Positions 1,877 through 62,823 of a stretch of DNA of 64,000 nt are shown piece by piece. Source of the DNA: Candidatus Nomurabacteria bacterium (GTDB lineage Bacteria; Patescibacteriota; Patescibacteriia; HK-STAS-PATE-3); assembly GCA_023898465.1 (NCBI GenBank), contig CP060223.1:512001-576000 (forward strand), in the 5' to 3' direction. How positions within the stretch are numbered: position 1 is the first letter of the stretch; every line of letters starts with the position of its first letter. The notes under the pieces are model-generated. The model was given only the letters and a program-made list of their open reading frames with translations, did no database searches and was not told where the DNA came from. A program made the position numbers and the translations under genes.

Positions 1877-4104
1877 ATGTGTGATCGAAACGTTTTTAAT
1901 CGTAAGGCATTAAGCACAACTGAAACACTTGAAAAGGCCATTGCAGCGCCTGCCCAAATTGGATTGATAGTAATTCCCCAAATCGGCGCTAATGCTCCCA
2001 TGGCAACGGGTATGAGAAGAACATTATAACCAAAAGCCCAAGCAAGATTTTGCCAAATATTCTTCATAGTTGCTCGAGAAAGCGCAAGAGTCACTGGAAT
2101 TAACCGTAAGTCTGGACGAAGTAACACAACTCCAGCGGTCGCAATAGCAACATCAGTTCCCTGCCCCATTGCAATACTTAGATCCGCCGCTGCCAAGGCA
2201 GGCGCGTCGTTAATTCCATCCCCAATCATTGCGACGCCTTTTTTCTGCTGCTGCAGCTCTTTTATTCGCTGCTCTTTTTCTTGTGGAAGCACCTGTCCGA
2301 TAACTTGCGAAAGTTTAAGCTCACGCTGCACGTGCTGCGCTGCTTCTCTAGTATCACCAGTGAGCATTATGGTCTGTATGCCCTGATGATTTAAGGCGGC
2401 AATTACGCTGGCGGATTCCTCACGTATCGTATCAGCAATACTAAAGGAGACGAGGGCTTCATGATTGTCGGCCACATATACACGAGACATATTCACTGGC
2501 ATGAATTGAGCCTGGTCTGCATCGATTTGGATATTCTCTTGAGCCAACAGTGAGGCACTACCAATATTCATTTGACCGATAGTATCCTTAGCCCGAACTC
2601 CTTTTCCGGGCACATCAATTATTTCAGGCGCTGTTTCTGCGCTAGGTATTCCTTTGTCATTGATATACTGCGCAATAGCTTTTGCTAAAGGATGATTTGA
2701 GCGTTCTTCAATTGTCCGGACACGGCCAAGTAACTCTTGCTGCTCCTGGACGGAAAAAGTACGCATCATTTGTATATCTTGTACACGGGGCTTGCCTTCC
2801 GTTAAGGTGCCAGTTTTATCAAACACAATGGTCTGCACACGTCTCCCCAATTCAAGCGCTTCAGCATTTTTTATAAGTATCCCAAGCTCTGAACCCTTAC
2901 CAATGCCGACCATAATTGAAGTGGGAGTGGCTAAGCCGAGCGCGCAGGGACAAGCAATAATAAGCACACTCACCATGCTTACAAGTGCGTGTGCCCAAAC
3001 TGGATCTGGTCCAAAAAATAACCAAAGTCCAAAAGTGAGCAATGAAAGAGCGATAACAATTGGCACGAAATATGCTGAGATCTTGTCAGCTAAATTCTGT
3101 ACCGGGGGTCGAGATCCTTGCGCTTCTTCAACTAAGCGTACGATTTGTGCCAGCATAGTTTCATCACCCACTCGTCTTGCTTCCATCTCAAAAGCACCGC
3201 TAGTATTCATAGTTGCGCCAATTACCTGGTCTCCTGCCTTTTTCTCTACTGGCAAGCCTTCCCCAGTCACCATGCTTTCGTCTACCGCAGAGGATCCAGA
3301 CACAATATTCCCATCAACAGGAACTTTTTCACCTGGCTTCACTAAAATACGGTCTCCTACACGCACGTCAGTAAGGGGAAGATCCTGCCAAGTTTTTTTT
3401 TGAAATACATGCGCTATTTTTGCCTCTAGCTTCAACAAACGCTTCATTGCTGTAGCTGCCTGACCTTTTGCTCGCAACTCGAGAAATTTACCCAGTAACA
3501 CTAATGTAATTACCGTAGCTGAAGTTTCAAAGTACGCTAGCTGACTAATACCTAATGCCGCTAATTGATTTTCGTAAACTATTGAGAATGCTGAGGAGGC
3601 ATAGGCTACGCTAGTTCCTAAGGCGATAAGCGTATCCATATTGGCCGTGCGATTTTTCAGCGCAGACCAAGCGCTCAGGTAATAGTTTTTTCCAGCCCAA
3701 AACTGTACCGGGGTGGCAAGTATCCACATCAACCATGACTGACGCAGCCAATCAGGCGCTCCTGGCACCATCGCGCCAATAAGCAATAGTACAGTGAGTG
3801 GGAAAGAAACAAACAATCTCTGTCTCAACTGACGCAACTCTTCGACTCGTTCCTTTTCCGTAAGATCGCCGTGATCATGTACGCCTATGTGCGCTTTATA
3901 ACCCAACTTTGCAACGGTTTGCCCTATTTCATACTCTGGAGTTGCATGAGGGTCGAAGCTAACTGCTGCTTGATGATTTCCATAATTTACCGTTGCCTCT
4001 TTTACACCTGGAAGTTTCTTTAGACGACGTTGGATATTTGCCGCACAGCTTGCGCAATGCATGCCAGACACATGAAAATTGATCTGTTGGACATTATTTG
4101 GCAT
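1873..4104 (-). CDS. copA: Copper-translocating P1B-type ATPase
   Basis: HMA motif GMHCASC, CPC transmembrane motif ([12 protein letters not shown]), DKTGTLT phosphorylation site and GDGINDAP hinge. Start placed at the internal ATG (4102-4104, MPNNVQQ...) rather than the 42-codon ORF extension. Confidence 0.9.
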
Positions 4105-4623: not shown

Positions 4624-5880
4624 CTATCGAATGTAGACGACCGCGCCTGTGCTAAAGGTGTTTATATCTTTACACGCCTGACCTGGAAAAACCTCAGCCC
4701 GTAATTTACGACTCTCCAGCATCTCTACCATAAAACATCCAGCTGAACTTGTTCCTGAACGCAGCTCCAGAGTGCTGCTCAAACTTGATCTATCCCAAAC
4801 TTGGCCATCAGCGTAATAGACTTGCTCGTAAAGGTCATAGGCTACCCGGCCGTTTTCTGGACTAATATCAACTGGCTTAGCAGCGTCGTGAGCAATAGTG
4901 AACTGTGAAGCGCCATCTGGCCAGTTACCTATTGAAATTACCGTAGCGCTAGGGTCGAGATGATCTGGAGCGATCGCGAGATGGGTAGTCCAATACGCAG
5001 ACGGATCATTGCCCGCATAACCATTTGTGGTCCCATCAGGATTCATCACAAACCAGGTGCCAATTAACCGTCCATCAATATCATAGTCAATCTTGCCGCT
5101 ACGTGGTTCAACTGTACGTAAATACTGGGTCAAAGCTAGGGAGCGAAGTTCTTCAGTGTAGTACGGCAGCGGATCAACAGTATGAATCTTCCACGATTCA
5201 CGCTCATAATGCTCCGGCACCACGAAGCCGCTAAGCTCGCTCTCTGTATCCCAAACAGCAAAATCGAGAGTCTGCCCGCCGATACTCCCTATACGTTGTC
5301 CAGCCTTCACAGGTAAATCAATACTATTCCCCTGCTGCTGATAGGCACTAAGTATATCAGGTGCTAAACCAGTGACTAAATCATAGTAGTAAAATAGATG
5401 ACAACTCATGCTGAATACTATCCGAAAGTCTGTCACGGTCTTGTTCGCATTTTGCCCCTGACCAGAGTGGGTACGCGTCCCTATATCAACAATCCGCGCA
5501 TCGGCCATTGCGTATACTGGATAGGCATCAATAGGTGAATCAAAAGGCTCGGGTGAGAAGTATTGATGATCAATTGGGGTGACGTGCCCACCGATCATTA
5601 ATCCGTATGGGATAATAAATCCAACATCGCTAGGGTCCATGGGATAATCGGTAAGCAAGGGTTTGTCGGTTCCCTGACAATGTCCATGACTTAATTCCTG
5701 ACCAGCTACATCAGCCGGCGTCCTCGCCTGCTCTTGTGTATTGATATTTTCTTCATTTTGCATTGAGGAGTTTTGATTTTGACTAACAGTATTGTCGTTA
5801 TTTCTACGAGTGAATAGCACAATAAGCACTGCCAGAAGAATGAGGACAGCGATGATGACGAGCGTCGCTACTTTTTTCAT
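4624..5880 (-). CDS. Secreted/membrane-anchored hypothetical protein
   Basis: 418 aa. N-terminal hydrophobic anchor (VATLVIIAVLILLAVLIVLF) followed by a low-complexity N/Q-rich linker. No confident domain. ATG at 5878-5880. Confidence 0.5.
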   Translation of the reverse strand: MKKVATLVIIAVLILLAVLIVLFTRRNNDNTVSQNQNSSMQNEENINTQEQARTPADVAGQELSHGHCQGTDKPLLTDYPMDPSDVGFIIPYGLMIGGHVTPIDHQYFSPEPFDSPIDAYPVYAMADARIVDIGTRTHSGQGQNANKTVTDFRIVFSMSCHLFYYYDLVTGLAPDILSAYQQQGNSIDLPVKAGQRIGSIGGQTLDFAVWDTESELSGFVVPEHYERESWKIHTVDPLPYYTEELRSLALTQYLRTVEPRSGKIDYDIDGRLIGTWFVMNPDGTTNGYAGNDPSAYWTTHLAIAPDHLDPSATVISIGNWPDGASQFTIAHDAAKPVDISPENGRVAYDLYEQVYYADGQVWDRSSLSSTLELRSGTSSAGCFMVEMLESRKLRAEVFPGQACKDINTFSTGAVVYIR

Positions 5881-5969
5881 ATGGGTAAGTATAGCATAGA
5901 AAAAATAGCTTACTCAGTATGAGTAGATTTTAATAGGCATTAAAAGGATTTTCGCTGTAAAATATCTCT

Positions 5970-6446
5970 TTACTGCCCTTGCTCGAAATCCTTCAGGATA
6001 CGCAAGTATTTTGCTTGAGTATCACTACCAATTTGTGGATGCGTAAAAACCGGCATTACACCGGTTATTGCTATGATATTTCTTACTTCATCAAAATAGA
6101 ATCCATCCAACGTTGCAATAAAGAGCCAAGAAGGATTCCAAGACTTAGCCATCCGTTTAGCATCTATAAGCACATATTCAGGACTTAGTTGTTTTTGATA
6201 TTTTACCTCTATCAATCTGACTTCGCTTGTTGCATGATCAATGACAGCGAAATCTGGCGCGGTACGTAAAATATTAACTGTTGGATTATCTTGTGAATAA
6301 CCCTGCTGGATAAGCTCAGGGATAATTTTTTCATACCCAAATTCGAGTACTGTAAATTGGCGTGATTCGCGAAACATTTGTGCAAATATCGTTTCAGCAA
6401 TTTTACCTTTAATGAGATTGTGAGTGAATTCTGTTGAGGTAGACAT
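5970..6446 (-). CDS. Hypothetical protein with PD-(D/E)xK nuclease-like motif
   Basis: 158 aa with a PDFAVID ... EVRLIEVKYQ arrangement (D ... E-x-K) typical of the restriction-endonuclease-like fold. ATG at 6444-6446 overlaps the stop of the upstream small ORF (TAATG). Confidence 0.5.
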   Translation of the reverse strand: MSTSTEFTHNLIKGKIAETIFAQMFRESRQFTVLEFGYEKIIPELIQQGYSQDNPTVNILRTAPDFAVIDHATSEVRLIEVKYQKQLSPEYVLIDAKRMAKSWNPSWLFIATLDGFYFDEVRNIIAITGVMPVFTHPQIGSDTQAKYLRILKDFEQGQ

Positions 6447-8034: not shown

Positions 8035-9186
8035 CTAATTATCTATTTCAAAATCCCAGAGTGCTTGTACCTGCGACGCGCTTAGGCCGGTGCGTGTCGC
8101 AATCTCTTGAGCCAAACTTGAGGTGCTGGTATTTGCAGAGGTCCACTCATAGCGCTGTGTATCACCACGGCGGGCTTTAATTTCTGTGCCATCTTCACGT
8201 ACCCGGACTTCTATTTCCCATTGGGCTTCTTCTTCATCGCCGTGATCCTCTGAATCGTTTGAATTACTATTACTGTTATGTGAATTGGTATCATCATTCA
8301 CATTTCCTTCATGAGAGTTGGTTGCATCTACATGCGTATTCTTATTATCATTTCCATGATCATCATTGGTGTCAGAATGGTCATCACTGCTATTGGCATT
8401 TTGCAGATCTACACCATCATACTCAATTTTGATAGCTGCCCGAACTTGGGCTTCGCTTAAGCCTAAACGGTCGGTAACTGCTTTAATAATTTCTTCACGA
8501 TCAGTCGTAGTCAGGGTAAACTCACTGTGCTGATTTGCTACTTCAGCCTGAACAAAGGCTTGTGCACCAGCTACGTGCACTTCAATTTCAATTCGCTGAA
8601 GACTATGACTGTTTTGTGCGTCTTCAATCTCACGCAGTTTTACTTCAACGTTACTTAGCGTCGCTGCAGCATGCTCATTTTCTTTGGCTTCTAATTCATC
8701 GCGCACTTCAGCTACGGTTTGTTGCGCATTTTGCAGAGCGGAATTTACATGATCAGCAGCATCTCGAGCTAGTTGCTCCTTTTGCTCTTGCTCTAACTCA
8801 GCTAGCTCTTTTGCTCGCTCAGCTGCAATCTCAGCCTGGATGCGGAGTCGCGCCTCAGCTGAGGTGGCTAAATTTAAACGGACTTGCTCGACGGCTTGAT
8901 CAATACCAAAGAGCCAATCTCCTGGCTTGGCATTATTCGCTGCGAGGACAGTGCCGGTGCCGCTGCCTAATAACACGATAGCGATAAGGATGCTTGCAAT
9001 CATATTTTTGTGATTAAGGAAAAAACCTGATCGCTGCTTATATCGATCAGCTTCCGGGACTGTTACGCTCGATGCAGCCATACGCAAACGAGCCTCAATA
9101 CGTTCACGGGCAGCCGGAGATAAAGACTGAGAATGAGACATCTTTAACAGCTTGATAATTTCTTTTGATGAAAAATGTTTCGACAT
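8035..9186 (-). CDS. Membrane-anchored coiled-coil protein, putative anti-sigma factor (DUF5667-like)
   Basis: 383 aa immediately downstream of the ECF sigma gene. N-terminal cytoplasmic segment, one TM helix (ASILIAIVLLGSGTGTVLAA), a long Ala/Glu/Gln-rich coiled-coil, then a His/Asp/Asn/Ser-rich low-complexity block (DDHSDTNDDHGNDNKNTH...SHNSNSNSNDSEDHGDEEE). Confidence 0.5.
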   Translation of the reverse strand: MSKHFSSKEIIKLLKMSHSQSLSPAARERIEARLRMAASSVTVPEADRYKQRSGFFLNHKNMIASILIAIVLLGSGTGTVLAANNAKPGDWLFGIDQAVEQVRLNLATSAEARLRIQAEIAAERAKELAELEQEQKEQLARDAADHVNSALQNAQQTVAEVRDELEAKENEHAAATLSNVEVKLREIEDAQNSHSLQRIEIEVHVAGAQAFVQAEVANQHSEFTLTTTDREEIIKAVTDRLGLSEAQVRAAIKIEYDGVDLQNANSSDDHSDTNDDHGNDNKNTHVDATNSHEGNVNDDTNSHNSNSNSNDSEDHGDEEEAQWEIEVRVREDGTEIKARRGDTQRYEWTSANTSTSSLAQEIATRTGLSASQVQALWDFEIDN

Positions 9187-9190
9187 ATAT

Positions 9191-9736
9191 TTACGAATAA
9201 GAGAGTTGTTCCATTTCCTTGCGTAAGGCTTGCAAAGCCCTATGTTTCAATACGCGCACATTGAGAGCACTGATCTGCATTACTTTTGCCACTTCACTTA
9301 TACTTAGATCCTCTCGATAAAGCATATGGAGCAGAGTTGCGTAGCGTTCAGGAAGGCGGGTTAAGGCTGATTCCATTTCCCGCTCCATTATTACATCTGG
9401 CATCTCATCCGGATCACTTGATAAAGTATGACTCACGCTCTCAATATCAACCTGGGTGCGTTGGCCACGATAATGATCAATCAAGCGGAAACGGGCAATT
9501 TGAAAAAGCCAGGTAGAGAATTTTGCATGTTTCTGCTCCTTATATCGGGGCAATGAGCGAATCATTTCAAGAAAAACAGTTTGGGTTAAATCCTCAGCTG
9601 TTTCCTGACTACTGACCCGCATAAGCAAGAAACGGAACACCCGGTCTCCGAAAAGGTGGAAAAGTTCGGCCACCCCTTCTTGATCCCCTTGTTGCGCTCT
9701 GGCGACGATTTCCTGTACTTGGCTTTCGTGTTGCAT
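9191..9736 (-). CDS. RNA polymerase ECF-type sigma-70 family sigma factor
   Basis: Region 2 (FLEMIRSLPRYKEQKHAKFSTWLFQIARFRLIDHYR) and region 4 HTH (LSISEVAKVMQISALNVRVLKHRALQALR). ATG at 9734-9736. Confidence 0.85.
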   Translation of the reverse strand: MQHESQVQEIVARAQQGDQEGVAELFHLFGDRVFRFLLMRVSSQETAEDLTQTVFLEMIRSLPRYKEQKHAKFSTWLFQIARFRLIDHYRGQRTQVDIESVSHTLSSDPDEMPDVIMEREMESALTRLPERYATLLHMLYREDLSISEVAKVMQISALNVRVLKHRALQALRKEMEQLSYS

Positions 9737-9798
9737 AGCGTATATTAGTATATCGGAAATAGGATTATTTTGTTACATCTACCAAGAAATGCTATTAC

Positions 9799-9827
9799 TT
9801 GACATTTTTTCATATCTAGTCTAGTAT
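9799..9827 (+). promoter_or_regulatory. Sigma70-like promoter TTGACA-N17-TAGTAT
   Basis: TTGACA at 9799-9804, 17-nt spacer, TAGTAT at 9822-9827. The same -35/-10 pair recurs upstream of csrA, which supports it being a genuine promoter consensus in this genome. Confidence 0.4.
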
Positions 9828-9835
9828 ATGCACTC

Positions 9836-10191
9836 GATGTTCATTAGAAATGAGAGAGAGGCGGGATGAGATAGGTGTCCCCCCAGACACCTCGCTACCT
9901 TCATACAGCGGTAGTTGCATCATCCCACTGCCCGAAGCGGCTCCCCACCCTTGTTACTACTTGTACTGGCTTCATCCCTAAGGATCCCCCGCCAGTCTGG
10001 TGCTGACATGTTCGGCGTCATATCCTTATGGTCTATTGGCTGCAAAGCTGATCACCTTTTGTGATGATGACTCACCGATGCTTCGGCTCAGATGCCTCTC
10101 TCTCCACCTACGCCTGCGCACCTGAGCACTCCCCCAGGCTCACTGCGCATGTGCCCCCGTCGTGTCGTTGTACCGACGGGGGTGCTTTTTT
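9836..10191 (+). ncRNA. Candidate structured non-coding RNA (unidentified class), about 355 nt
   Basis: GC-rich (roughly 55-60%) stretch with no ORF of 60 codons or more, lying between two minus-strand genes. It has its own plus-strand promoter upstream and a strong intrinsic terminator at its 3' end. Contains several local hairpins, for example GGTGTC-CCCCCCA-GACACC and a GC-UUCG-GC tetraloop. Confidence 0.35.
10154..10191 (+). terminator. Rho-independent terminator
   Basis: 9-bp GC-rich stem CCCCCGTCG/CGACGGGGG (10154-10162 / 10174-10182) with an 11-nt loop, then TGC TTTTTT. It is oriented for plus-strand transcripts only. Confidence 0.6.
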
Positions 10192-10232
10192 ATAAAAAGA
10201 AATCCCCAGGCCGATTGGTCTGGGGATGAGAA

Positions 10233-10679
10233 CTAGAACTGTTGTGCTGAACGCATCCGATGAAGCGTGCTACACACCAGTCCAATACCAGAGCGACGCT
10301 CTACACAGAACTGATACACCCGTTGCGCCGCCATGAGCTTTTCATAGAGCGCCTGACCATGCTTAGTGGCTAGTTCGTTTCGCATCTCCCGGTCTAGACC
10401 TTGGTAATACGAACCAAGCAGCAGATAGCGCACTAGAAGCCACCCCAGTAACCCGGAGCTGAGCAGCATCGCTGTTAAAGCACCGGGCAGAGTCAGATAC
10501 CCGAGCAAATCCTCCAGTCTTGCCCAGTAGTACACTGCAACAAGCTCAAATAGCAGAAACGCTAGCGTGGCTATAGTTGACCCTATCCGGATAAACAGGC
10601 GCCACCTTTTCACTCTCTCGCACAACTCTAGAATCTCTTCTTCTTGAACACTGAGTTGCGCGTAGAGGAAATTCGACAT
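10233..10679 (-). CDS. Hypothetical membrane protein
   Basis: ATG at 10677-10679 with a strong Shine-Dalgarno (GAGGGAGGTG) upstream. Two or three predicted TM helices. Lies directly downstream of the heliorhodopsin gene. Confidence 0.5.
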   Translation of the reverse strand: MSNFLYAQLSVQEEEILELCERVKRWRLFIRIGSTIATLAFLLFELVAVYYWARLEDLLGYLTLPGALTAMLLSSGLLGWLLVRYLLLGSYYQGLDREMRNELATKHGQALYEKLMAAQRVYQFCVERRSGIGLVCSTLHRMRSAQQF

Positions 10680-10745
10680 ATGCACCTCCCTCTTGCATAC
10701 CCAAAAGCAGTCTACACCCGCTGCACTGCAGGTCAAGCATTCAGG

Positions 10746-11528
10746 TTAAGGCCGGAGAGTACCGGAAAACATTTGCCAGGCTAGAGCTGATTTCGCCACC
10801 AGGGACAAAATCATATAGGCCTTTTCACCGTAGAGATAGTCCTGCCATTTCCCTATCTTCTTATACTGCAGGACCATGTTAATCGCGAAGATGTTAAAGG
10901 TGACAAAGATGGTGGCCACAATGAAATAAACAAAGGTAGGAATCTCCACTCCGGTCGACTGTACCGCGCCAATGAAGAAAGCAACAATGACCAGCCAGGG
11001 AATTAAGCCAGCCAAAACTCCTATCCAGTACGAAAGCCAATTCGTATGCTTGGTCGTCTGATTATGTACTTCCATCATCAAGCCCATGAGATTCATAATC
11101 GCATTCAAGGCAAACAGCGAAATGAGTAGCCAAAGATCGTACACACCACAAAGCATGGCAATAACTACAATCATAACTGACGAGGATAAGGCATACTCAG
11201 CCCAACGCAGCTTGTTGATGCCCTTTTTCAAATTCTCCTCATACCATTCCCGCAAAGGTCCGGCTAGAAGGAAATGCGCAAAAGCAGAAAGGAAGAGAAA
11301 GACCGCTACGGTGGGGCCTAAGCGTAAGTCAAACAAATGCTCAGGAAGTGGAGCTACACCAAAAACTGGATTATTTGGATCGATTTTCAGGTATGAAGTA
11401 ACAACTGGTAAAGATGAATTATTGCTTATCAAAACCATAATGACGCCTTGCACGAAGTGAAGGGCGGCCATTGACCAATTCCAGACTTGTAGTTTTTTTA
11501 ACTGCTCTTTTTGACTACGCATTTTCAT
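10746..11528 (-). CDS. Heliorhodopsin
   Basis: 260 aa, 7 TM. Close motif-level match (from memory) to heliorhodopsin 48C12: LQVWNWSMAALHFVQ vs LQNFNRIAGVFHLLQ; RWAEYALSSSVMIVVIAMLCG vs RWVEYSLSSSVMIVLIAQICG; GEKAYMILSLVAKSALAWQMFSGTL vs GERAYIVLSLVAKSALAWQIFSGTL. This includes the TM7 Schiff-base Lys (SLVAKS), the counterion Glu (RWAEY) and both conserved His. Confidence 0.85.
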   Translation of the reverse strand: MKMRSQKEQLKKLQVWNWSMAALHFVQGVIMVLISNNSSLPVVTSYLKIDPNNPVFGVAPLPEHLFDLRLGPTVAVFLFLSAFAHFLLAGPLREWYEENLKKGINKLRWAEYALSSSVMIVVIAMLCGVYDLWLLISLFALNAIMNLMGLMMEVHNQTTKHTNWLSYWIGVLAGLIPWLVIVAFFIGAVQSTGVEIPTFVYFIVATIFVTFNIFAINMVLQYKKIGKWQDYLYGEKAYMILSLVAKSALAWQMFSGTLRP

Positions 11529-11546
11529 ACCCCCCCCTTTTTTTCT

Positions 11547-21190: not shown

Positions 21191-22537
21191 TTACTCGACC
21201 TGATACTTACCTAACATAATTAGTTCTAGACGGCGAGCTAATTTACGAGCTGTTTGTCTGTTATATCCTAAGCCGCCCTCATCCCACGGTAAATCAAATT
21301 GACGAAAAGCTTCTTTTTGATCAATAACACCCTGTAAACGATTTTGAAGTACTGTATTGAAACGACGCAGTTCATCCGCGCTCCTCATATGAATAGCAAA
21401 CACATCGAGGAGATAATGTCGAATTGTGTGCACTCGTTCTTCTTCGCTTGTAGCTTGCGCTTCGCCCTCTCTTTGCTGAAGTAGTTTAATTTCCTCGACA
21501 AGCTGGGCGATCTTTTCAGTCATCTTTTCTGCGGTGCGATGATCCAAGCCAAAGCCGCCGTCCTCAATATTGAGGTCAAGTAACTGTTCTAAACGCTGAT
21601 CCTCACGCAGCCCGCTCATCAACATGTGCTGCACTTGCTCCTCTAGCTTTGACAATTGAGGAAGTGTTAATCCTGTCAGCACCTCGGTAACAATCTCACG
21701 CGACTTATAGGGCAGAAGCAAATGTTCAATATGCTGAGGCTCTAAGGTGGTATATGATCGCAGGAGTAATTCGAGATTATGCGGCACAACGGGCGGCACC
21801 TCTTTTACCTCTTTCACGCCGGGATGAATAGCTCGGTTCACTTTCGTCTGAATGATCTGCCCATCCTTCATATAAAAAACCCGATGGGCTAAATGCAAAT
21901 GGGCCGGATTATGCGTGACGAGAATAATCGTCTTATTTCTTTTCTCATTTAGCTCATGAATCAAATCCATCACATCATTGGCTGACTTTGAATCAAGGTT
22001 TCCAACCGGCTCATCCGCAAGCACAATGTCGGGATTATTTACTAGAGCGCGACAAATAGCCACTCGTTGCTGCTGACCACCAGAAAGCTCTGTTGGCAAT
22101 TTTTCAGCCTGGGTAATCACGCCAAAGTGCTTGAGAAGCTCGTTAGCAAGCTTAGTTCGCTCGGCCACCGCAGTATGAATTGCCATTTGCGGCAAAAGTA
22201 CATTTTTGCGAACTGATAAGGTTGGTATCAAATAGAAGGCTTGAAAAATCATGCCAATCTTATGCTGGCGATACTCAGCAATCTCTCGCATGGTCAGATG
22301 AGCAATGTCTTTTTTATCTACTGAAATATTTCCATGCGTATGGGTTTCTAGGCCAGCAATTGAATAGAGTAAGGTAGACTTTCCACAACCCGAAGGGCCA
22401 AAGAAAATAATAAATTCACCTGGATAAATTTCCAGGTTAATACGCTGAAGTGCTTTCACTTCATTCTTGCGACCCATAAAATAGGTCACGTTAAGGTCTT
22501 TTACTTCAATAATTGGCTGTAGTACTTGCTTGCCCAC
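21191..22537 (-). CDS. ABC transporter ATP-binding protein (MacB/LolD-like) with an unusual roughly 220-aa C-terminal extension
   Basis: Walker A GPSGCGKST, signature LSGGQQQRVAICRAL, Walker B ILADEP. The C-terminal half has no recognisable domain but contains an internal repeat (EDGGFGLDHRTAEKMTEKIAQL / DEGGLGYNRQTARKLARRLELI). GTG start. Confidence 0.85.
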   Translation of the reverse strand: MGKQVLQPIIEVKDLNVTYFMGRKNEVKALQRINLEIYPGEFIIFFGPSGCGKSTLLYSIAGLETHTHGNISVDKKDIAHLTMREIAEYRQHKIGMIFQAFYLIPTLSVRKNVLLPQMAIHTAVAERTKLANELLKHFGVITQAEKLPTELSGGQQQRVAICRALVNNPDIVLADEPVGNLDSKSANDVMDLIHELNEKRNKTIILVTHNPAHLHLAHRVFYMKDGQIIQTKVNRAIHPGVKEVKEVPPVVPHNLELLLRSYTTLEPQHIEHLLLPYKSREIVTEVLTGLTLPQLSKLEEQVQHMLMSGLREDQRLEQLLDLNIEDGGFGLDHRTAEKMTEKIAQLVEEIKLLQQREGEAQATSEEERVHTIRHYLLDVFAIHMRSADELRRFNTVLQNRLQGVIDQKEAFRQFDLPWDEGGLGYNRQTARKLARRLELIMLGKYQVE

Positions 22538-22597
22538 CTTCGCGTATACTCCGACAGCTGAATAAAACTCTTTTAAGTATACGCTTTTTTGAGGAAC

Positions 22598-23716
22598 TTA
22601 TCTAGTTTTTGCCTGCCAAATAGGCATTTGCGCAAGTTCCGCCATTGCTTCACTTGCCTCAATAATTCCCCCTCCAATAAGCTCATCCCCTTGATAAAAC
22701 ACGATGAACTGTCCTGGCGTGACTGCACGCTGTGCTGTAGTGAAAGAAACGCGCAAGTGCCCATCCTGCTTCTCAATCACGCAATCCTGGGCTGGCTGAC
22801 GGTAACGAATGCGAGCCTGGCAATGATAAGGAAATTCTGGCTCTCTCATTGTCCAACTTGGCTCAATCATGCTCAGCCAGGTAGAGTAAAGCAAAGGGTG
22901 CTTATTCCCCTGCACGGCAATAAGACGATTATGCTCGGTATCTTTTACTGCCACATAGTACGGAATACCCGTGCCGCTCACCCCTAGGCCTTCTCGCTGG
23001 CCAATGGTGGCAAATATACTTCCCTGGTGCTGACCAATAACCTTACCCTCTGGAGTTATCACCTCGCCGGGCTGCTTGTGCAAGCGTGTTTGTAAAAATT
23101 CAGCGATATTCACTGGACCAACAAAGCAGATACCCTGGCTGTCTTTTTTCTCCGCTGTGCGCAGTCCGGCTTCTCGCGCCATCTTTCGCACTTCAGGTTT
23201 TGTATACTCACCGATTGGAAAAAACGCGTAGGGCAAACTGCGCTGATCTAAACTCATGAGAAAATACGACTGATCTTTGTTGCTATCTAAACCCTGGAGA
23301 AGATGAGACCCATCTGCATCATGACGCACTCGGGCATAATGTCCGGTTGCAACTGCATCATATCCTTCGGCAAGCGCCCGTTGTAAAAATAATCCAAACT
23401 TAATCTCCTTATTACAAAGAATATCAGGATTTGGCGTGCGACCTGCAGCGTATTCTGCAAAGAAGATATCCATAACCCGTTGACGATACTCTTCTTCAAA
23501 ATCCCAGACTTCGAAAGGAATGCCTAACTGGGTAGCAACCCGGACCGCATCTTTGCGATCAGCTTCTTCTGAGCAGTATGGCGAAATCTTGGACTTGGTC
23601 CAGTTTTTCATAAATACGCCCGTGATGTCATATCCTTGGTCTCGCAATAAAAGTGCGGCAACCGAAGAATCAACCCCACCGGACATACCTACGGCGATTT
23701 TTTTCTTCTTCGTCAT
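22598..23716 (-). CDS. mnmA: tRNA-specific 2-thiouridylase
   Basis: PP-loop SGGVDSS, plus CSEEAD and catalytic Cys motifs characteristic of MnmA. ATG at 23714-23716 (MTKKKKIAVGMSGG). Confidence 0.9.
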   Translation of the reverse strand: MTKKKKIAVGMSGGVDSSVAALLLRDQGYDITGVFMKNWTKSKISPYCSEEADRKDAVRVATQLGIPFEVWDFEEEYRQRVMDIFFAEYAAGRTPNPDILCNKEIKFGLFLQRALAEGYDAVATGHYARVRHDADGSHLLQGLDSNKDQSYFLMSLDQRSLPYAFFPIGEYTKPEVRKMAREAGLRTAEKKDSQGICFVGPVNIAEFLQTRLHKQPGEVITPEGKVIGQHQGSIFATIGQREGLGVSGTGIPYYVAVKDTEHNRLIAVQGNKHPLLYSTWLSMIEPSWTMREPEFPYHCQARIRYRQPAQDCVIEKQDGHLRVSFTTAQRAVTPGQFIVFYQGDELIGGGIIEASEAMAELAQMPIWQAKTR

Positions 23717-23759
23717 AGCGACGCAATGTACCACATGCCGAAGCCTGATGCAAGCATCT

Positions 23760-50272: not shown

Positions 50273-50407
50273 AACGTTACTCACCCCCTTTCTTGTTATG
50301 CTGTGAATAAGTATAGCACTGAATGAAAAATAGTGCTATATATTGGGATTTATTACTAGAATACAAAAACCCCGCTTTCACGGGGCTTTTGTTTAGTGCA
50401 ATACAAA

Positions 50408-50836
50408 TTACTGCCACACGGCTAAAATAGCCCCCATAACAAGGAGCTGAACCAGGTGATAGCCAGTGGTAATGGCAAAGTGGCCAAACTTCTTAAACTC
50501 AAATAAGTAGTTTGTACCAACAGTGGCAAAGACAAATCCTAGCCACATCCAAAAACCGGTAAGCAACCCATCTACCAATGTGGTAACTTTTACATACCCA
50601 ATGACATGCGCAAGTACATAAGCTACAACTAAAGAAAGAATAAAGGCAAAGAACATTGATCTTGCCGGATTCCCCTCTTTAATTTGCTCCTCGGTTTTTC
50701 CTACAAAGCCCATCCAGGCCTTACCAAAAACGCTTCGTGCGTACCAAATACTACCAACCAACATGGATGAGGCACCAGCAACTAAAACCGCCCAATAATT
50801 AATAGCTACATCGAACACATAATCACCCCCTTTCAA
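50408..50836 (-). CDS. Hypothetical 4-TM membrane protein (DUF1761-like)
   Basis: Hydrophobic 142-aa ORF with a TTG start. The family call is from memory only. Confidence 0.45.
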   Translation of the reverse strand: MKGGDYVFDVAINYWAVLVAGASSMLVGSIWYARSVFGKAWMGFVGKTEEQIKEGNPARSMFFAFILSLVVAYVLAHVIGYVKVTTLVDGLLTGFWMWLGFVFATVGTNYLFEFKKFGHFAITTGYHLVQLLVMGAILAVWQ

Positions 50837-50865: not shown

Positions 50866-51990
50866 TTAGGCGTCATCTGCCGTTTGGGTAGTGCAGGGAC
50901 AAGCAACCTTATCGAGTTGTAAGCGCTCGAGGATAGGCTCCGCTTCTTTATCTGTAGCCGGACGAGGCCTCGCATAGTCATCAATAATAACCGGTACGAA
51001 GTCTAAACCAGTGACACCCTCCTGGCTATCGATTTCGATATCAGCCAGCATCCCCTCCCTGGTTGGTTGTGACCACATTTGATCAAAAATAAAATTACCT
51101 AGACTGTAGAGAATATACTTCCCCTTATACGCTTCGATATTTTGCACCACATGAGGATGATGACCAATCACTAGCTCTGCTCCAGCGTCAATTGCTGCAT
51201 GAGCGAAATCAATCTGCTGCTGTGTTGGCGTGTAAGTATATTCAATACCAGAGTGCATCGAAACAAACACATAGTCAGCCATCTCTTGCGCTCGCTGCAC
51301 AGCGGACTGCATATTTGCTATGTCCATAAACGCAGTCCCAGGCTGCGTGTCGCTTGCGCCATAGCTGGCTGGAACTAAGGAGCTCCAGGTGTACGCAACG
51401 ATGGCGATGGTAATTCCATTACGCGTCAGCAAGGCCGGCTGCTCCGCCTGATCTAAATCTTCGCCTGCCCCGGTCGAGGCGATCCCGGCTGCGTCCAGAT
51501 AGCTTATCGTATCTAACAATCCATCATTTCCAAAGTTAGGACTGTGATTATTTGCCAAGGAAACTGCGGAAATATTTGCGTCAGCCATTAGCTCTTCAAC
51601 CCCAGGGTTAGCCCGGAAGCTTAACTCTTCTGCTTCAATATGCCGACCGGCTGTAATAGGACACTCCAGGTTTGCGAACACTGCATCGGCCTGCTGTAAA
51701 ATATCTTTCATGCCAGAGAAGGGATAGTCATTTCCCTTTTTCGCCATCTTATCTGCCACAGTACGAGAAAGCATAATATCCCCCACAGCATAGAGATGCA
51801 TGCTTTGTGACGATTCTTCAGGCACCTCACTCAAGTCTGTTGAGGGCTCATAGACAAGCTGATCTTGTAGTGAAGCGTATACCCTCGGTGCTCGCCCGGC
51901 AATCTTATTTGCCACCTGAGCAATACAAAACCAACCTGCGCCTAAGACCAGGATGATAACAACTACGGGATAAAAGTAACGGGCAGACAT
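50866..51990 (-). CDS. CapA/PGA_cap family metallophosphatase-fold protein (poly-gamma-glutamate capsule-synthesis-like)
   Basis: LYAVGDIMLSR ... FANLECPIT ... and HSGIEY motifs characteristic of PGA_cap. ATG at 51988-51990. Confidence 0.8.
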   Translation of the reverse strand: MSARYFYPVVVIILVLGAGWFCIAQVANKIAGRAPRVYASLQDQLVYEPSTDLSEVPEESSQSMHLYAVGDIMLSRTVADKMAKKGNDYPFSGMKDILQQADAVFANLECPITAGRHIEAEELSFRANPGVEELMADANISAVSLANNHSPNFGNDGLLDTISYLDAAGIASTGAGEDLDQAEQPALLTRNGITIAIVAYTWSSLVPASYGASDTQPGTAFMDIANMQSAVQRAQEMADYVFVSMHSGIEYTYTPTQQQIDFAHAAIDAGAELVIGHHPHVVQNIEAYKGKYILYSLGNFIFDQMWSQPTREGMLADIEIDSQEGVTGLDFVPVIIDDYARPRPATDKEAEPILERLQLDKVACPCTTQTADDA

Positions 51991-61452: not shown

Positions 61453-61557
61453 CAGATACCCCCAGTTATTGGAACTCTTGTAAGTGATTCCACTCTCGCA
61501 GAATCGTGAAATGAGCCTGTTTCTGCCGCGAAAACATCCGGCATGAAACACCGTAAC

Positions 61558-61908: not shown

Positions 61909-62823
61909 CTAACTGTCTCGCAAGCGCAGTCTACCCTTTACCCTTTCCACAATCCTTTCTTTGCCCAAAGCATCCAGCGCGGTGGTGAAGCGCGTACGTT
62001 CAGCTTTTGGGTATGATTTTTGTATGTGTCGAAAAAGCTGCGCCGCACTCATCGCTTCAACAGTTAGTAGGGCGACGATACGACCGCGATAAAAACGACT
62101 TGAGTCGTGGAAGGGACTGGCCGGGCGCTTTGTGCGCGGTAAAGCTTTTCCCTGCTGACGTAACTTCTGAATCTGGGGAAAGGCCTGACAGGTATTGCGT
62201 AGCGGGCAGGTTTCGCATAAGGGATCACGCGCGATACAAACAGTAGCACCAAAATCCATCATAGCATGTCCCCATTTCCAAGCTTGGGTGGACGGGAGCA
62301 CCGAGGCAGCTAAGACTGCCATTTCCTTTGTGCTCAATTTTGGCTGCGTGTCTAAGCCGACAAAAAAACGAGTCAACACACGCTCAACATTCGTATCAAC
62401 CATTGCTACGGATATCTCAAAGGCAAAGGCAGCAACCGCTCGAGCAGTATAGGGCCCGATACCCGGTAGCGCTTCAAGCAACTCCACATCGGCCGGAAAC
62501 TTACCTTTGTATTCACGGACTAGCTCCTGCGCGCTTCGTTGTAAGTTTATAGCGCGACGATTATAACCCAAGCCTGACCATTGCCGTAGAACACTTGAAC
62601 GAGGAGCTGCAGCCAAGGCGCGTACCGTAGGAAATTCTTGTAAGAAAGCAAAGTAGCGCGGAATCACCCGACTGACCTGCGTTTGCTGCAACATAATTTC
62701 AGAGACGAGTATGCGATAAGGGTCACGAGTTTTCCGCCATGGTAAATCGCGCTGATGGGCCGCGAACCATGCTAAAATTCGTTGTTGAAATTTCTTTCGC
62801 CGGGTTGTGCTGGGTAGCTTCAT
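61909..62823 (-). CDS. mutY: MutY-family HhH-GPD adenine DNA glycosylase (non-canonical C-terminus)
   Basis: N-terminus LPWRKTRDPYRILVSEIMLQQTQVSRV. An HhH-GPD core. A 4Fe-4S loop CIARDPLCETCPLRNTC (C-x6-C-x2-C-x5-C). The C-terminal roughly 70 aa are not NUDIX-like. Confidence 0.8.
   Translation of the reverse strand: MKLPSTTRRKKFQQRILAWFAAHQRDLPWRKTRDPYRILVSEIMLQQTQVSRVIPRYFAFLQEFPTVRALAAAPRSSVLRQWSGLGYNRRAINLQRSAQELVREYKGKFPADVELLEALPGIGPYTARAVAAFAFEISVAMVDTNVERVLTRFFVGLDTQPKLSTKEMAVLAASVLPSTQAWKWGHAMMDFGATVCIARDPLCETCPLRNTCQAFPQIQKLRQQGKALPRTKRPASPFHDSSRFYRGRIVALLTVEAMSAAQLFRHIQKSYPKAERTRFTTALDALGKERIVERVKGRLRLRDS

Follow-up and report, generated by a model that had tools for sequence, protein, structure and literature searches.

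A probable structured non-coding RNA gene between heliorhodopsin and a sigma factor operon in a Nomurabacteria lineage

We analysed a stretch of 64,000 nucleotides from a Candidatus Nomurabacteria bacterium (GenBank assembly GCA_023898465.1, contig CP060223.1, positions 512,001 to 576,000; hereafter the 64-kb window), in which an intergenic element flanked on both sides by minus-strand gene groups had been put forward, from inspection of the letters and their open reading frames (ORFs), as a candidate structured non-coding RNA (ncRNA). Our results indicate that positions 9834-10191 are very probably a genuine plus-strand gene for a structured ncRNA, with a homologue at the equivalent position in a sister lineage. 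As to its function, we tentatively propose, by analogy with C-rich small RNAs (sRNAs) of Firmicutes, that it may be an independently transcribed, uncatalogued RNA of about 340-360 nt that represses translation through pairing between its exposed C-rich loops and Shine-Dalgarno (SD) sequences made of G-runs.

Evidence for a structured plus-strand RNA gene

The element is bounded on the plus strand by recognisable signals for the start and the end of transcription. A sigma-70-type promoter (TTGACA-17-TAGTAT), described in the original prediction as near-consensus, indeed agrees with the consensus at 10 of 12 positions and is the top promoter-like site in the 2 kb scanned (9000-11000). In the homologous contig (L001, introduced below), the -35 TTGAC, the -10 block AGTNTAGTATA and the ACTCG of the start region are kept, and the spacer has diverged. 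At the other end, the GC stem and T6 tract of an intrinsic terminator had been correctly noticed, although the stem, formed by GUGCCCCCGUCG (10151-10162) and CGACGGGGGUGC (10174-10185) and followed by T6 at 10186-10191, is 12 bp long and not 9 bp as first described; L001 has GCCCCC.../...GGGGGU in the equivalent place. It had also been argued that this terminator cannot serve either flanking gene, and we concur: both of these genes lie on the minus strand and the gene at 10233-10736 has its own terminator hairpin, so that the plus-strand terminator serves neither neighbour. The predicted transcript of about 358 nt is placed from the promoter and the terminator, and hence both its 5' and 3' ends are predictions. 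The same strain has also been assembled independently (L059); this assembly is 99.9% identical over 3.6 kb and identical in the RNA region, and the sequence is therefore no assembly artefact.

The 358-nt interval has a predicted minimum free energy (MFE) of -140.2 kcal/mol, corresponding to a z of -5.5 relative to shuffled sequences, while 80 same-size windows drawn from the same sequence have a mean z of -0.2 (sd 1.3). Its predicted fold (Table 1) has a distinct layout: helix P1 closes the core; a P2 side domain branches from it; P1b and P3 lead to a junction of the P4, P5 and P6 domains; these are followed by the P7 hairpin and then by the terminator. A segment earlier described as a GC-UUCG-GC tetraloop turns out to be a misreading, as the GCUUCGG concerned (10080-10086) is the 3' strand of P3, both strands of which are conserved. 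A reading of CUGA...UGAUGA in P6 as a C/D box or K-turn was rejected, given that UGAUGA is missing from L001.

The homologue was reached by way of the neighbouring extracytoplasmic function (ECF) sigma factor. Among 5.8 billion proteins, its closest relative is P0002 with 76% identity, all others showing at most 58%, and on the Logan contig that encodes P0002 (L001) heliorhodopsin is followed by a 460-nt gap and then by sigma, the gap aligning to the window element. BLASTN fails to link the two copies, their interiors being too diverged; folded alone, the L001 RNA nonetheless attains a z of -10.8, and the independently predicted MFE structures of the two copies share P1, P2, P2a, P1b, P3, P4, P5 and P6 at equivalent positions.

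Comparison of the copies reveals two classes of conservation. On the one hand, P1 (GAGAGAGG/CCUCUCUC in the comparison with L001), P3, the block B1, CUGGC...CCCCGCCA of P5 and AAANCUGAUC of P6 are conserved in sequence: GAGAGAGGC, CUUCGGC and CCUCUCUCC are all kept, the P3 pairing CCGAAG/CUUCGG is invariant and recurs in both independent MFEs, and B1 is identical at 17 of 21 positions with a single 1-nt indel, following the pattern CCCGAAG-NGG-loop-CCCC-NCCCU. On the other hand, the remaining helices covary. Thus, P2 is GGGAUGA/UCAUCCC in the window and UGUGCAG/CUGCACA in L001, with 6 of its 7 pairs changed on both sides, and P1b is CUG/CAG in the window and CACA/UGUG in L001, with all three pairs compensatory. 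The same is true of P2a, where the GGTGTC/GACACC hairpin (9873-9892) singled out in the original prediction proves real and is maintained by compensatory changes (AGGUGUC/GACACCU in the window, AGGAUUG/CAAUCCU in L001), and P6 (helices 11-13) displays nine two-sided changes. For P7, L001 has a hairpin of different sequence in the equivalent place.

These observations are consistent with the results of a covariance model (CM) search. The model R1, for which only the window copy was used, recovers L001 with 32 bits (E ~2e-9) when run with filters off, whereas the rest of about 260 kb of other sequence yields at most 15 bits; the 15-bit match in the window itself (62031-62151) was discarded as it reads as coding sequence. 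Standard pairs make up 96.6% of the cells in the R1 alignment, where 24 pairs show two-sided changes; controls in which the structure was slid by 1-3 columns have 0-4 such pairs. An alignment fitted to the window copy's own fold biases such counts upward, and the independent MFE of L001 provides a control for this bias. When the alignment is anchored by hand, 13 pairs are changed on both sides and none is broken. Covariation in the orthologous intergenic region had been named as a check on the proposal, and what L001 provides is a conserved architecture with extensive covariation between two sequences.

Several features favour the plus strand for the RNA: the conserved promoter and the U-tract terminator lie on it, the folding z is better than that of the minus strand in both copies (-5.5 versus -4.7 in the window; -10.8 versus -8.0 in L001), and the alignment contains 10 G-U cells against 2 A-C cells. 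They also bear on an alternative in which the structure belongs to the minus strand and serves the operon for ECF sigma and anti-sigma (9736 downward) as a long 5' leader or as a cis-acting regulatory element. Although both neighbouring genes are encoded on the minus strand and that strand, too, folds well, the 10 G-U cells would there become A-C mismatches, and we could find no minus-strand promoter between the terminator at 10194-10227 and the element. Moreover, a conserved promoter-like site of the sigma gene itself ends just 10 nt before the ATG, which would make the leader very short and removes the need for a long one; sigma orthologues with 55-58% identity (L002, L003, L055-L057) likewise have just 70-150 nt upstream, with no RNA. 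We hence consider a leader very improbable.

Even more improbable, in our estimation, is that the interval encodes a small protein or is what is left of a decayed gene or of a mobile element, its structure being incidental. ORFs of 31-49 aa do occur, but none exceeds 49 aa and none of the nine short ORFs of the interval has a Pfam match at E<=1, in keeping with the initial impression that no credible ORF is present. Six-frame peptides of the window element compared with those of the L001 element give a best score below 19 bits, no ORF being conserved, and thus the suspicion of a pseudogene, raised at the outset as a way in which the proposal might fail, finds no sign in its favour. We also discounted a small ORF that follows the SD-like GAGAGG, since its ATG is followed by a stop two codons on in the window and is missing in L001. 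The element has no second copy or repeat in the window by BLASTN and no BLASTN match in plasmid and phage collections or in the other loci retrieved, although BLASTN, which misses even the true homologue, tells us little here. Neutral decay cannot explain the compensatory changes.

Besides the fitting bias mentioned above, two points weigh against the interpretation as an RNA gene: the L001 terminator has a poor U tail, and the distinct sequences number two and come from sister lineages, so that the covariation is effectively one evolutionary observation.

Table 1. Features of the RNA gene and its neighbourhood (positions in the window).
Feature	Position	Strand	Description
DUF5667 anti-sigma-like gene	8035-9186	-	Paired with ECF sigma (operon 8035-9736)
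ECF sigma gene	9191-9736	-	Left flank of the RNA gene; ATG at 9736
ECF sigma promoter-like site	9747-9776	-	GTAACA-18-TATACT; divergent; ends 10 nt before the ATG
Sigma-70-type promoter	9799-9827	+	TTGACA-17-TAGTAT; 10/12 consensus positions
Predicted transcript	9834-10191	+	About 358 nt
P1, 5' strand	9852-9862	+	GAGAGAGAGGC; pairs with 10094-10104; sequence kept in L001 (GGAGAGAGGC / CCUCUCUCC)
P2 side domain	9863-9926	+	P2 is 9863-9869/9920-9926
P2a hairpin	9873-9892	+	In the P2 side domain; loop CCCCCC at 9879-9884
P2b hairpin	9894-9915	+	Window copy only
P1b, 5' strand	9928-9930	+	CUG; pairs with CAG at 10089-10091
Conserved block B1	9931-9951	+	P3 5' strand CCGAAGC (9932-9938), then the short P4 hairpin
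P4 hairpin	within 9931-9951	+	In B1; exposed loop CUCCCCAC, CCCC at 9943-9946
P5 domain	9952-10008	+	Outer helix UGUUA/UGACA, inner helix ACUGGC/GCCAGU; exposed CCCCC at 9986-9990
P6 domain	10012-10078	+	Long irregular hairpin; conserved AAANCUGAUC; GCAA loop
P3, 3' strand	10080-10086	+	GCUUCGG; pairs with CCGAAGC at 9932-9938
P1, 3' strand	10094-10104	+	GCCUCUCUCUC; pairs with 9852-9862
P7 hairpin	10115-10149	+	Between core and terminator; loop CCCCC at 10131-10135
Intrinsic terminator	10151-10191	+	12-bp GC-rich stem, then U6
Terminator of the 10233-10736 gene	10194-10227	-	Hairpin CCCCAGACC/GGCCUGGGG, then UUUCUUUUU (T-run)
167-aa ORF	10233-10736	-	Between the RNA gene and the heliorhodopsin gene
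Heliorhodopsin gene	10746-11528	-	Pfam PF18761, E 2e-98
G8 run, heliorhodopsin SD	11530-11537	-	Candidate target; longest G/C run in the window; AAAAAAAGGGGGGGGTATG

Relationship to known RNA families and distribution

Searches with the 4227 models of Rfam 15 returned no match at the gathering score across the whole window. At E<=10 on the element alone, both copies yielded terminator look-alikes (up to 20 bits) and noise, with no family in common. The RNA is thus apparently uncatalogued, a status that rests on Rfam 15 and on a small literature search, limited in scope, which turned up no report of an RNA of this kind in Patescibacteria; in this measure the suggestion of an undescribed RNA family is supported.

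The same searches bear on whether the element might be an extremely diverged housekeeping RNA (RNase P RNA, 6S/Ms1-like RNA, signal recognition particle (SRP) RNA or transfer-messenger RNA (tmRNA)) lying beyond the reach of the Rfam models. Its length, strong promoter and closing helix would suit a housekeeping RNA, and the adjacent sigma gene is loosely suggestive of a 6S-type RNA. Furthermore, RNase P RNAs of the Candidate Phyla Radiation (CPR) often fall below Rfam thresholds and need manual refolding, though they are detectable with RF00010 at lowered thresholds (PMC8172020). For the present element, in contrast, neither RF00010 nor RF00011 matches at the gathering score or at E<=10 on either homologue, and the other housekeeping models are equally absent at E<=10. 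CR-I and CR-V, the GGAAAGUCC-like and ACAGAA...GGCUUA-like motifs of the RNase P P4 pseudoknot, are missing from the window element sequence, and P2 closes locally rather than joining the 5' region with the 3' end as in RNase P RNA. No tmRNA was detected in the window by ARAGORN or by Rfam, and neither copy matches the SRP RNA models RF00169 or RF01854 at E<=10; a lone GNRA loop (GCAA, 10042-10045) is not kept in L001. There is likewise no match to the 6S RNA model RF00013. The element does resemble 6S and Ms1, which are RNA polymerase-binding RNAs: it is hundreds of nucleotides long, a helix brings its 5' and 3' parts together, its promoter is strong and of the housekeeping type, and a sigma gene lies alongside. 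Those RNAs, however, form a rod with a central, open-promoter-like bubble, whereas both the MFE and the consensus structures of the two copies are branched, with the P2 side domain and the P4/P5/P6 junction. Finally, a universal RNA would be expected in relatives, and R1, run with filters off, found nothing similar in about 67 kb of them (L007-L011 included, L060 not), which is a small share of each genome. These results agree with the initial failure to match the element to RNase P RNA, tmRNA, SRP RNA or 6S RNA, and make a diverged housekeeping RNA improbable.

In its general character the element resembles the large orphan RNAs OLE, raiA, ROOL and GOLLD. Like them it is long, GC-enriched relative to the genome, richly paired and endowed with conserved junctions, and like them it emerged from the logic of looking for long GC-rich intergenic regions (PMC12286853, PMC11109978). 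It differs in having no CM match to any of them, in being smaller than OLE, ROOL and GOLLD, and in its presence in two lineages as against the hundreds of representatives of these families. The GC enrichment itself needs qualification: at 0.556 the element stands at the 97th percentile of the window (mean 0.468, sd 0.041), and the earlier statement that it is richer in GC than its surroundings applies to the upstream flank (0.40-0.45) and not to the downstream gene (0.52-0.535), so that the contrast is real but one-sided.

The distribution was further surveyed by pattern scans of genome and metagenome collections, which gave 3 and 43 matches respectively, most of them at loci with a high GC content. 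P1, the B2 block and the CUGAUC motif are all missing from each of the 43 metagenome matches, and none of 11 pattern-matched loci rescanned with R1 exceeds 11 bits. The pattern used required a 3-nt spacer before CCCC, which is the length in L001, the window copy having 2; because it misses the window copy, these scans exclude copies of the L001 type only. A corrected pattern gives one match in the window and none in viral contigs. Taken together, the searches weakly support a restriction of the RNA to one Nomurabacteria-labelled lineage, and we regard this as provisional. The organisms concerned are represented in the DNA runs SRR12358675/6 and SRR32105342.

The loci examined in this survey contain further intergenic regions of possible interest. 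In the related metagenome-assembled genome (MAG) GCA_040960375.1 (L007), a 366-nt gap at 5727-6091 on the plus strand, from heliorhodopsin to an S-adenosylmethionine synthetase gene, may hold a riboswitch or leader, and shows no R1 homology to the window RNA. In a Kerfeldbacteria MAG (L010), a GC-rich, hairpin-rich gap of 413 nt (3259-3670) lies downstream of heliorhodopsin, again with no R1 match. Three CT-rich metagenome contigs from one project (L014, L020 and L044; Joint Genome Institute Ga0179593/Ga0179591) share a CCGAAGCGG-loop-CCCC start followed by long pyrimidine-rich tracts; they look mutually related but, judged with R1, not related to the window RNA.

Exposed C-runs, a candidate target and a possible scaffold role

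A striking concentration of C-runs is seen in the element: 5 of the 29 G/C runs of five or more in the window fall inside the 358-nt gene. Outside the terminator, the C-runs have predicted probabilities of being unpaired of 0.67-1.0 in both copies, against a mean of 0.35 for the molecule, and three to four of them per copy lie in loops. The values are 0.78 in the window and 0.99 in L001 for the B1/P4 loop, and 1.0 in both for the CCCCC of P5.

These runs may have a counterpart next door, where the heliorhodopsin gene has an SD of eight consecutive G, longer than any other G/C run of the window. The heliorhodopsin start of L001 is preceded by AAGGGGGTAAAATG (G5), and no G-run SD is present at six heliorhodopsin loci lacking the RNA, which amount to five distinct sequences since L010 and L011 carry the same gene. 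When 97 translation-initiation regions were ranked by RNAduplex, the heliorhodopsin initiation region came first, second and fourth for three C-loops. Elsewhere in the window, GGGGG runs on the minus strand at 50284-50288, 50826-50830, 51780-51784 and 61459-61463 are located 5-11 nt before plausible starts (e.g. AAAGGGGGTGATTATG), and a subset of the genes of this genome thus appears to have SDs of the G-run type.

A precedent for interactions of this kind comes from the Firmicutes, where RsaE/RoxS sRNAs employ C-rich regions to pair with G-rich SD sequences and repress translation. The present RNA shares with them a stand-alone gene with its own promoter and intrinsic terminator, and several C-runs in hairpin or internal loops, these being predicted to be exposed in both homologues; the proposed pairing with G-rich SD regions would be a further parallel. 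It has no sequence or CM homology to them (no Rfam match), is about three times larger, has a closed multi-domain core and comes from another phylum. On this analogy, the RNA would act in trans by pairing of its exposed C-runs with G-run SDs, and the best candidate target would be the mRNA of the neighbouring heliorhodopsin, whose translation it may control. The resulting duplex, made entirely of G-C pairs, would outcompete the CCUCC anti-SD of 16S rRNA, whose pairing with such a site contains G-U, and translation would be repressed.

Some of our observations weigh against this proposal and make its case a weak one. The complementarity between C-runs and G-runs is of low complexity and confined to the runs themselves, and the C-run loop positions of P2a and P7 are not kept in L001. 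The association of the RNA with G-run SDs is effectively one evolutionary observation, as the genomes are sisters. In addition, the 250-nt core, the invariant P1 and P3 and the conserved junction exceed what base-pairing sRNAs usually need, which points toward a protein-binding or catalytic role; so elaborate a core suits a scaffold or ribozyme no less well.

This last consideration leads to the main competing account of the same ncRNA gene, namely that its product acts as a stable scaffold for protein binding, as a sponge that captures protein, or as a ribozyme. In such a molecule P1 would close a domain in which the conserved junction and loops are recognised by protein or form a tertiary core, with the C-loops binding a protein in the manner of CsrB and CsrA. 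The sequence invariance of P1 and P3 amid adjacent helices that covary freely, together with the conservation of the multi-helix junction and of B1, is compatible with it, as are the strong constitutive-type promoter and the helix closing the 5' and 3' parts, which recall the RNAs of housekeeping ribonucleoproteins (RNPs), and a core of about 250 nt that is atypical of seed-pairing sRNAs. CsrB is a protein-sponge RNA whose GGA loops bind CsrA, and the present RNA resembles CsrB and RsmZ in repeating a short motif across the loops of several hairpins; the motif here, however, is CCCC instead of GGA and has three to four copies only. We know of no bacterial protein that binds C-loops. Furthermore, no candidate partner protein is conserved adjacent to the gene, the shared neighbours being only the ECF sigma/anti-sigma pair and heliorhodopsin, and so narrow a distribution speaks against a function in core housekeeping. 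We accordingly view a scaffold, sponge or ribozyme as possible though doubtful, and only slightly less probable than the pairing of C-loops with G-run SDs, which we keep as our tentative proposal.

Genomic setting and implications

The immediate neighbourhood of the gene differs in part between the two lineages. The 167-aa ORF that separates the RNA gene from heliorhodopsin in the window has no Pfam match and no counterpart in L001; it is unrelated to the 171-aa ORF of L001, where heliorhodopsin directly abuts the RNA region with no ORF between them. Its start is uncertain, the Logan gene calls giving 148 aa. Heliorhodopsin homologues with 74-83% identity (L007-L011, L060) are found in other gene contexts. 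On the side of the sigma gene, both hexamer regions of the promoter-like site are kept in L001. The proximity of that site to the ATG would make the sigma mRNA nearly leaderless, and the site stands back-to-back with the RNA promoter, their -35 boxes being 22 bp apart.

Beyond this locus, no tRNA or tmRNA (by ARAGORN) and no RNA recognised by Rfam at the gathering score is present anywhere in the window. The second most stable 358-nt window of the background sample is 22401-22758 (z -4.2 to -4.7 on the two strands), a stretch with several local hairpins that covers the junction of two minus-strand genes (21191-22537 and 22598-23734).

To our knowledge, it is rare for a structured bacterial RNA of more than 300 nt to fit no known family, and almost nothing is known of the regulatory and structural RNAs of Patescibacteria, whose genomes of about 1 Mb leave little space for useless DNA. 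The two lineages known so far limit the general impact of the finding for now. That it reveals a new class of large structured RNA of a CPR lineage, retained in a streamlined 1-Mb genome because its multiple C-loops regulate heliorhodopsin post-transcriptionally, possibly along with a small set of other genes whose SDs are G-runs, or else the RNA subunit of a new RNP, is an outcome that we hold to be possible, if on the unlikely side. Heliorhodopsin is a widespread photoreceptor, and should the pairing of C-loops with its G-run SD be true, the RNA would offer a testable handle on the regulation of this protein and would imply that the C-rich-loop strategy of the Firmicutes arose independently in the CPR. 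Should the RNA be a scaffold or ribozyme, it would represent a new RNP.

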